From Thalassoglobus sp. (GTDB lineage Bacteria > Planctomycetota > Planctomycetia > Planctomycetales > Planctomycetaceae), in assembly GCA_048266185.1 (NCBI GenBank), contig JBLWZY010000001.1, positions 652,002 through 716,001 of the forward strand: 64,000 bases of DNA, read 5' to 3'. The notes beneath the pieces were generated by a model. It was given only the letters and a program-made list of their open reading frames with translations. It was not told the DNA's origin and searched no databases. The position numbers were made by a program, and so were the translations under genes. Positions 36,020 through 37,117 of this stretch are shown piece after piece; position 1 is the stretch's first letter, and every line of letters begins with the position of its first letter.

Positions 36020-37117
36020 CTACGCATCCACGTAGGATTTCATGTCCGACCACTGACCGAGTTCTTCCTGAAACTTCATGCTCTTGTCAACTTCCAGTGA
36101 CCCATCTTCTGAGACACGAATCCCGACACGCTCGAGAGGGCGTGGCGCTGGACCTTCGAAGTTGATTCCAGTGATATAAAATCCTGAACCGTGACACGGG
36201 CATTTAAACTTCTGCTCCCCTTCAAGCCAGTTGGGAGTACATCCCAAGTGGGTGCAAATTGAAGCTAAAGCATAAATGATTCCGCGTCCGTTATATTCAT
36301 CGCTGTTGATAATCCAGACGCCACGGCTTGCCTTGAATTTGGCAGAGACGACACCTGGCGGATAATCAGAAGGAGGCCCCACTTTGAATCGTGAAGGCAA
36401 CTCGAGTACCATGTTTGGCATCATGTAGCGAGCGATGTCCAAAGACCAGATCGCACCAATTGCACCCATCGCTGACCATGCCAATGCGAAGGGAGTGATT
36501 GCAATCGCTGCCAGAATTGCAACGAAGCCACGGCGTTGAACTTTTTCCGATCTCTTCGGAAACTTTGGCTTCATCGGAGCTGGTCTTCCAGCTGGCAACT
36601 TCGGCTTTGCAGGGGCACCTGTTTCGTGAGCTTCCTTGACCGCGGCAACCATATCTTTCAGAGCAGGGCGATCACCGGCGACTGGTGCCGCTTTCTTTGC
36701 AGCCGGTTTTTCAGCAGCTGCTGGTTTTGCCGGGCTCGCTTTTGCGGCACCACCACCTTGAGCTCGTGCAGCTGCAAGAATGTCTGAAGTTGACTTAGGG
36801 GCAGCTGCAGGCTTTGCTCCGCCAGCTTGTGCTCTTGCAGCAGCAAGAATGTCCGCTGTGGAGCTTGGTTTCTCAGCAGGCTTTTTGCCACCAGCAGCTT
36901 GGGCTCTGGCAGCTGCCAGAATGTCTGCAGTTGACTTTGGTGTGGCGGCTGGCTTCTTCGCTTCTGCTGTTTTTTCTTCAGCAGGGGGAGTTGCCTCAGT
37001 TCCGCTTCCGCTGTCAGAGTCAACTTTTGACTTTGCAGACGCATCATCACCGTCGCTTTTTTGCTGACGAGCAAGAGCGATGATTTCTTCGGTGGTAAGT
37101 TTCTTTTTTTCCGCCAT
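36020..37117 (-). CDS. Rieske 2Fe-2S subunit (QcrA/PetC-like) with ~195-aa repetitive N-terminal extension
   Basis: CTHLGC and CPCHGSGF; internal Tat-like RRGF before the TM segment. Start refined to MAEKKK. Confidence 0.9.
   Translation of the reverse strand: MAEKKKLTTEEIIALARQQKSDGDDASAKSKVDSDSGSGTEATPPAEEKTAEAKKPAATPKSTADILAAARAQAAGGKKPAEKPSSTADILAAARAQAGGAKPAAAPKSTSDILAAARAQGGGAAKASPAKPAAAEKPAAKKAAPVAGDRPALKDMVAAVKEAHETGAPAKPKLPAGRPAPMKPKFPKRSEKVQRRGFVAILAAIAITPFALAWSAMGAIGAIWSLDIARYMMPNMVLELPSRFKVGPPSDYPPGVVSAKFKASRGVWIINSDEYNGRGIIYALASICTHLGCTPNWLEGEQKFKCPCHGSGFYITGINFEGPAPRPLERVGIRVSEDGSLEVDKSMKFQEELGQWSDMKSYVDA
36758..36937 (-). repeat. Three coding repeats of (K/S)ST(A/S)DILAAARAQ, period 23-24 codons
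   Basis: Units at 36899-36937, 36827-36865 and 36758-36796; peptide nearly identical but synonymous codons diverged. Confidence 0.9.

Follow-up and report, generated by a model that had tools for sequence, protein, structure and literature searches.

A conserved array of helical short linear motifs on the cytoplasmic tail of a planctomycete Rieske subunit: a candidate docking site at the bc-type complex

The 64,000-nucleotide stretch of the Thalassoglobus sp. genome analysed here (the window; contig JBLWZY010000001.1, positions 652,002 to 716,001) encodes the Rieske iron-sulfur subunit of a bc-type complex, in which the membrane anchor is preceded by 194 mostly disordered residues carrying five copies of a short, predicted helical motif. 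Based on the collective evidence, the array is on balance probably a multivalent docking site that keeps one or more cytoplasmic partners at the cytoplasmic side (n-side) of the bc-type complex. The motif, we infer, would bind protein, and its role would lie in local recruitment, not in catalysis or biogenesis. The elements of the protein on which the argument depends are the following.

36020..37117, minus strand: gene of the Rieske iron-sulfur subunit, 365 residues, gene 1 of the bc-type operon (open reading frame, Pfam, homologues)
36536..37117, minus strand: cytoplasmic N-terminal tail, residues 1-194, rich in Ala, Pro, Lys and Gly, net charge +13, mostly disordered
37061..37102, minus strand: terminal-type motif KLTTEEIIALARQQ, residues 6-19, helix 9-20, near-universal at about residue 10 in orthologues and resembling the C-terminal motif of a small protein described below
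36887..36940, minus strand: central motif copy 1, PKSTADILAAARAQAAGG, residues 60-77, helix 63-72
36818..36868, minus strand: central motif copy 2, PSSTADILAAARAQAGG, residues 84-100, helix 87-96
36749..36799, minus strand: central motif copy 3, PKSTSDILAAARAQGGG, residues 107-123, helix 110-119
36629..36670, minus strand: membrane-proximal degenerate motif RPALKDMVAAVKEA, residues 150-163, helix 153-166
36422..36535, minus strand: twin-arginine motif RRGF (195-198) and single transmembrane helix (195-232), from sequence and AlphaFold2
36131..36388, minus strand: periplasmic Rieske [2Fe-2S] domain, residues 244-329 (Pfam PF00355, E 1.7e-8)

The initial annotation of this DNA, made from the letters alone, had described some 195 residues ahead of RRGF, three near-identical motifs spaced by 23-24 residues, and degenerate copies besides, and that description holds almost to the residue. 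The three near-identical helices PKSTADILAAARAQ are joined by linkers of Ala, Pro, Lys and Gly; matches to the pattern [ST]x[AS]DIL[AE]AAR start at residues 62 and 86 (both STADILAAARAQ) and at 109 (STSDILAAARAQ), hence at spacings of 24 and 23 residues, and the degenerate copies TTEEIIALARQQ (8-19) and ALKDMVAAVKEA (152-163) lie at either end of the tail. At the DNA level, Tandem Repeats Finder recovers the array as a 69-72-nt period with 72% matches at 36747-36955. Given an input of 72 orthologues, AlphaFold2 predicts the five helices listed above, with the segments between them at a predicted local distance difference test (pLDDT) below 50; apart from these helices of 10-14 residues the tail has no structured element in the model, and a hydrophobic stretch is absent from residues 1-194. 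The S/T-x-x-D/E at which the helices start resembles an N-capping box. The helices had also been called amphipathic, and here the helical part of the claim agrees with prediction while the amphipathic part does not fit the central motif, for which the Eisenberg hydrophobic moment is 0.16 (0.36 for the first copy, 0.50 for the last) and which has two large hydrophobic residues per 10-residue helix. Among orthologues, the membrane-proximal motif reads xxK[DE]MVAAVK or SVxEM[VL]KA[AV]R. Motif peptides include STADILAAARAQGG, SPLELARQQGAAG and, at the terminus, TTAEILALARKQ. The tail is covered by no match in Pfam (E <= 10), NCBIfam or PDB sequences.

The database gene call is longer: it comprises 433 residues and begins with an ATG at 37321, which is only eight bases away from the stop of queG. 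It is probably over-extended, with the true start at 37117, because the additional 68 codons (37118-37321, minus strand) are not conserved in orthologues and contain a stop codon in the sister genome, 18 codons upstream of ATG 37117; in several other genera a stop occurs directly upstream. Met1 is invariant across the 72 aligned orthologues, and most of the 120 best homologues have the first motif near residue 10, so a start downstream of the repeats, which would have removed the array from the protein, is not what the orthologues indicate. The claim that synonymous codons differ among the copies, and hence that conservation is at the protein level, is likewise borne out: of 18 codon differences among the three central copies, 16 are synonymous. 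This within-gene count is preferred to one over 28 copies (2780 synonymous compared to 384 non-synonymous differences), which is biased in that the selecting pattern fixes seven residues. An annotation artefact, with the tail not part of the protein at all, could appeal to the result that neither a Shine-Dalgarno nor a promoter signal was found near 37117, where promoter and terminator scans were uninformative; confronted with the invariant Met1, the conserved first motif, the synonymous variation and a conservation that extends across orders, it is very improbable indeed.

Conservation within the tail is concentrated on the motifs. In the 72-sequence alignment, the mean column entropy is 0.53 bits for the central motifs, 0.54 bits for the Rieske domain and 2.07 bits for the linkers, which supports a strong protein-level constraint limited, as far as the alignment can tell, to the motifs; the suspicion that the motif might be unconserved is thus set aside. 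The central motif is present in 0 to 4 copies (usually 2 or 3) in a set of 120 homologues, at spacings between 19 and 68 residues, around the consensus P-K-S-T-A-D-I-L-A-A-A-R-A-Q-G-G. Long-tailed Rieske orthologues occur in nine families and short ones in four among 121 sampled genomes of the class, sampled families having been matched to family names via the labels of metagenome-assembled genomes (MAGs), some of them unreliable. In named records the tail is present in Planctomycetaceae including Schlesneria, in Pirellulaceae/Rhodopirellula, Lacipirellulaceae and Bythopirellula (variants MSVADMLAAARA and DTASILAAARKG), and in Isosphaeraceae-labelled MAGs (variant RPLTLKEKLAAARAGG). A short Pro/Ala tail, or none, is found in Gemmataceae and in orthologues from Omnitrophota, Acidobacteria, Spirochaetia and others, and the motif had no match in about 144 genomes from the phylum's other classes. 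Two Kuenenia-labelled records (L156, Candidatus Kuenenia stuttgartiensis, and L113) show Rieske tails of the Isosphaeraceae-labelled or Planctomycetaceae type; these contigs are probably mis-binned.

The protein that bears the tail, with 7309 homologues in a protein database search, is a member of the iron-sulfur subunits of Rieske/cytochrome b complexes. The names of the homologues point to an organism within, or closely beside, Thalassoglobus polymorphus of the Planctomycetaceae. Both cluster-binding boxes are there, CTHLGC (288-293) for CxHxGC and CPCHGS (306-311) for CxCHGS; the twin-arginine pair, R195 and R196, is invariant in the 72-orthologue alignment and is followed by one hydrophobic anchor helix, as expected of such subunits; and a cytochrome b gene adjoins. 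TatC, of the twin-arginine translocation (Tat) pathway, is encoded in the same genome. The Rieske gene is the first of a four-gene operon, with queG upstream and the genes of the cytochrome b6-like and subunit-IV-like proteins directly downstream.

35170..35943, minus strand: cytochrome b6-like subunit, 257 residues, next gene after Rieske (Pfam Cytochrome_B, E 1.6e-41)
33741..35105, minus strand: enlarged subunit-IV-like protein, 454 residues (weak Pfam Cytochrom_B_C match, E 5e-4, 20.6 bits at a cut-off of 20.7)
29510..33673, minus strand: multiheme cytochrome c with a PDZ domain, 1387 residues, last gene of the operon (Pfam)

Since the Rieske N-terminus is established to lie on the cytoplasmic side, with insertion of the protein dependent on Tat (PMC3471235, PMC5449189), residues 1-194 would stay in the cytoplasm as a disordered tether hung on the n-side face of the bc-type complex. 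Displayed on it would be a helical short linear motif, specific to the class and present five times, whose core reads [ST]-x-x-[DE]-[IM]-[LM]-A-[AL]-[AI]-R-x-[QG]-G. A further feature of that face is suggested by the cytochrome b6-like subunit, which carries TWCMGG (W-C-M-G-G), an instance of the CxGG motif that is kept in 78 of the 78 related loci from which the cytochrome b gene was recovered. In planctomycete complexes the motif predicts a cytoplasm-facing heme cn site (PMC5600118). The predicted covalent heme (cn/ci) on the cytoplasmic side of cytochrome b makes an n-side partner plausible; it proves nothing.

Reuse of the motif elsewhere in the genome provides the second line of evidence. 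The initial annotation had proposed a proteome-wide search with an eye to other redox proteins; a six-frame regular-expression scan combined with two small hidden Markov models, applied to the whole 6.67-Mb genome, locates the motif on two further redox-linked proteins and identifies only three carriers in all, namely the Rieske tail with its five copies and the following two.

Contig C14:614-1348, minus strand (locus L041:611-1372), outside the window: 245-residue 'hypothetical protein' with an N-terminal domain of about 70 residues and an Ala/Pro/Lys-rich tail
Contig C6:114155-117046, plus strand (locus L001:8156-11047): 963-residue fusion of a siroheme nitrite/sulfite reductase, a rubredoxin-like segment, a Rieske (NirD-type) domain and an FNR-like reductase, with one motif copy

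The fusion protein has an exact STADILAAARA in the linker that leads from its Rieske domain to the flavin adenine dinucleotide domain. From residue frequencies, a chance identity over 11 residues is estimated at about 1e-6 expected per proteome; and as the DNA differs from that of the Rieske motif at 8 of 36 positions, all of them synonymous, the motif in the fusion is not a recent copy. At the corresponding position, orthologues from other genera show STVDILAQARG, MSPLEMMRAQ or SPLEQLRSQ. These were read from genomes, as a word-index search with the linker (670-740) returned only a 99%-identical protein and was uninformative on conservation. The gene lies in a nitrate-assimilation cluster together with a transporter of the major facilitator superfamily, a fused DmsB/DmsC-like Fe-S/membrane-anchor protein and a molybdopterin oxidoreductase, and the pairing of the last two suggests a quinol-linked assimilatory nitrate reductase. 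A weak match in a 783-residue Tex-like protein (GTADILAARIAES) was attributed to chance, being inside a folded domain, and apparent extra carriers in three relatives (G008, G014, G016) were rejected as Rieske tails split by contig ends or frameshifts. With the tail alone as query, a representative library of 1.84 billion proteins gave only 9 matches, presumably an effect of composition filters. Among them is P0130, a protein of 397 residues made up of about ten motif copies (STAEILAAARAADG, SVATMLASIHSQ, TTDILAAARRQG and others) and little else, with no recognisable domain.

The small protein combines a well-conserved domain with a tail of the same kind as that of the Rieske protein. Its tail has four (A/K)(S/L)SPLEMARQQGAAG repeats (SPLEMARQQG) and ends in the motif STEGILALARQQGPFKG (STEGILALARQQG). 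The N-terminal domain is 70-80% identical across Planctomycetaceae genera and has 535 homologues and no Pfam model; AlphaFold2 gives it one helix and five strands at pLDDT >90. Foldseek places this domain, modelled as a barrel of about 60 residues, at TM-scores (template modelling) of 0.7-0.8 relative to the target (3c4s, 6a7k, 7okx_Z) with E-values of 0.004-0.08, so that the model appears to be an SH3-like barrel near KOW domains (Spt5, NusG), NdhS and PsaE, the E-values being weak and the fold tiny and common. A PDB sequence search with a profile and a database search revealed no relative at the sequence level. In the same model the C-terminal motif reaches a pLDDT of about 87, whereas the internal repeats are at 56-78, a difference that gives no more than a hint that a helix may dock on the SH3-like domain.

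Several observations connect the two tails. Variants of the small-protein tail include SPLELARQQG, SPLDKIRAQG, MSVADILAAARG and KKPSTADILAAARAKK, and SPLELARQQG stands together with STADILAAARAQ within one tail in P0126, another of the library matches, and in the small protein of genome G080. The Rieske tail of genome G123 holds GGSPLDKIRAAG, identical to the small-protein repeats of that genome. In Planctomycetaceae, ALAR[KQ]Q is the terminal motif both at the Rieske N-terminus and at the small-protein C-terminus; in Pirellulales, the terminal motif is A-A-[A/C]-R-x-x-D on the Rieske protein and A-[Y/F/W]-C-R-x-x-D on the small protein. BLASTP of one tail against the other aligns the motifs with E = 0.001-0.003 (single comparison). 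Judged by sequence, the motif variants seem interchangeable between the two proteins. In sampled genomes with both proteins the tail lengths always agree: the two tails are long in 27-29 genomes and short in 8. Both the bc-type Rieske protein and the small protein are lacking in 11 sampled Planctomycetaceae genomes from four genera, and in the Planctomycetaceae family f1 the small protein is missing from every sampled genome that lacks a bc-type Rieske protein. The Rieske tail would share its motif code with the SH3-like protein and the nitrite reductase fusion, and with the motif common to three proteins, these probably compete for, or share, one binding site.

A number of observations weigh against the docking interpretation, or restrict it. 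The agreement in tail length clusters on the phylogeny and may go back to only one or a few events, hence the tail patterns count as few events and not as dozens; the shared variants could come from recombination between the genes as well. The pairing of the two proteins is broken on both sides: family f4 (Isosphaeraceae-labelled relatives) carries the motif on the Rieske tail alone and has no detected small protein, a tailed small protein occurs without the bc-type Rieske protein in genus g24 and genome G020, and tail-less lineages retain the SH3-like domain with no motif (Gemmataceae being named on the Rieske side only, in one record). For these reasons the SH3-like domain is not the sole or obligatory receptor of the Rieske tail, and each tail can work alone. 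Gene neighbourhoods and a comparison of cytochrome b6 N-termini yielded no receptor, and the neighbourhoods of the small-protein gene, kept only among close genera (thioesterase, HlyD-like, AroDE), yielded no partner. The cytochrome b6 N-terminus was discarded as a co-varying receptor for being the same in tail-bearing and tail-less lineages, and docking of a phospho-Thr to an FHA domain (T-x-x-I) for the Ser or Ser-Pro that other lineages have at that position. The tail-less SH3-like proteins themselves (L085-L087, L082; G077, G096, G022, G120; other orders) end in another conserved peptide, K-[YF]-D-x-[TK]-x-N-S-A-Q-x-[IL]-P-x-R-Q-[ST].

The main rival explanation dispenses with a separate receptor. 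The Ala-rich helices of the Rieske tails, the small-protein tails and the nitrite reductase linker would act as stickers that pair with one another, inside one such region or across regions, thereby clustering bc-type complexes and drawing the other two proteins into a membrane-proximal assembly or condensate. The anatomy of the tail is that of stickers and spacers, pairing between helices predicts that lineage variants are common to both proteins of a genome, and the tails kept without the SH3-like protein, or without a bc-type Rieske protein as in genus g24, would be explained; helices of about 10 residues with two large hydrophobic residues, and a moment of 0.16-0.36 for most copies, would however pair weakly, and the two proteins of Planctomycetaceae differ in their internal variants (STADILAAARAQ versus SPLELARQQG). 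We regard this rival as possible and rather unlikely. A role in biogenesis, with the helices docking a cytoplasmic chaperone whose task would be to retain the precursor pending insertion of the [2Fe-2S] cluster, or to proofread it prior to Tat insertion, agrees with the location of the tail directly upstream of the invariant twin arginines, with the occurrence of the motif in the fusion right after another Rieske-type domain, and with the folding and cofactor loading of Rieske proteins in the cytoplasm ahead of Tat transport (PMC3471235, PMC5449189). It is nonetheless improbable: the small protein has five copies yet shows no Fe-S or Tat features, the Rieske orthologues of Gemmataceae and other phyla manage without the motif, and one chaperone does not require three to five copies.

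Physical roles of the tail fare no better. That it should be an entropic spacer, or a polymer brush lining the invaginated membrane on its cytoplasmic side, with the helices merely tuning stiffness, would suit a region that is long, low in complexity, basic (+13) and variable in length; a motif conservation equal to that of the catalytic domain and the exact recurrence of the motif in unrelated proteins would both go unexplained, and we think it a poor prospect. Binding of the helices to the membrane surface in-plane, or to a polyanion such as nucleic acid, would draw on the tails being net positive in every lineage examined and on the amphipathic last copy (moment 0.50). The central motif is Ala-dominated and barely amphipathic (0.16), which makes membrane binding unlikely; moreover, the SPLELARQQG variant is polar and the Rieske protein is membrane-anchored already, so that we give this possibility little credence. 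The initial annotation had supposed a multivalent motif that clusters respiratory complexes or tethers them to a cytoplasmic partner or a membrane; what stands of it is a motif that is translated, multivalent, variable in copy number and spacing and reused, and what recedes is tethering to the membrane, the least likely of its options. Within the docking interpretation, a more ambitious scheme can be formulated, in which the motif serves as the targeting signal of a cytoplasmic docking system peculiar to planctomycetes. Through it, the Rieske tail, the nitrite reductase-FNR fusion and the SH3-like protein (in fold resembling the ferredoxin-docking NdhS and PsaE) would form a membrane-proximal redox hub or condensate on the n-side, near the predicted heme cn, and hold cytoplasmic electron carriers or enzymes at the complex. 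We consider this scheme speculative and, as a whole, unlikely.

Comparison with known systems clarifies in which respects the planctomycete protein is unusual. It shares with the PetC and QcrA Rieske subunits the Rieske boxes, the single Tat-type RR anchor helix and a split cytochrome b operon; in usual Rieske proteins, however, the RR motif is near the N-terminus, whereas in the planctomycete protein it is preceded by 194 disordered residues, which carry five conserved helices. The NCBIfam models of the cyanobacterial/plastid PetC (NF045928, 63.3 bits at a cut-off of 250) and of the QcrA type (NF050121, 42.6 bits at a cut-off of 275) both score the protein below their cut-offs. The actinobacterial QcrA, such as Sco2149 of Streptomyces with its dual Sec-Tat insertion, also has a long N-terminal region ahead of the Tat-dependent helix, but there the region before RR consists of two transmembrane helices inserted by Sec (PMC3471235, PMC5449189). 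The corresponding region of the planctomycete protein is soluble and disordered, and because it has no transmembrane helix, the protein is not of the dual Sec-Tat type.

Analogies in architecture are offered by scaffold and tether proteins. PopZ of Caulobacter likewise presents a short client-binding helix on a long Pro/Ala-rich disordered region (PMC9512792). It differs in having one helix and a C-terminal oligomerisation domain, and in being soluble. The tail gave no match to the PopZ family model (DUF2497), nor to any other Pfam family at E <= 10. The PopZ helix (…EEILASIRRI…) may resemble variants found here (EDILASIRGG, STADILASIRKK), and the motif may also be like WH2 helices and the C-terminal peptide of FtsZ. 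EPYC1 and CsoS2, which the initial annotation had named, are soluble scaffolds with several short helices on flexible linkers in variable copy number, and their receptor is Rubisco; conserved helices on drifting linkers are what the Rieske tail has in common with them, while its array is located on an integral respiratory subunit. Tic62 and TROL use repeated Ser/Pro-rich polyproline-helix motifs in a disordered tail to tether FNR to the photosynthetic membrane. One of the motif carriers described here precedes an FNR-like module; its motif differs in being alpha-helical, as predicted, and in having no sequence similarity to theirs. NdhS, PsaE and KOW domains are like the SH3-like barrel of the small protein, in a fold that is very common. 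By the tests run, the likeness to EPYC1/CsoS2, PopZ and Tic62/TROL appears architectural only, and none of them qualifies as homologous.

Lastly, the findings have importance for how respiratory complexes of these bacteria may be organised. Full-text searches of the literature retrieved no description of this Rieske tail, and a conserved candidate docking array on a Rieske subunit, as part of a small motif network, looks undescribed. A conserved multivalent array of short linear motifs on a core subunit departs from the picture of bacterial respiratory complexes as compact machines. The tail would be a striking disordered region conserved across several orders even if it were dispensable, and it offers a compact, portable peptide tag or tether system for probing multivalent motifs in bacteria. 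If the array recruits partners, it would give a handle on the spatial organisation of respiration in planctomycetes with their heavily invaginated membranes, on the cytoplasmic side of the octaheme bc-type complex, and on the function of a strongly conserved SH3-like 'hypothetical' protein; and the redox hub, if true, would represent a new way to organise a bacterial respiratory chain.

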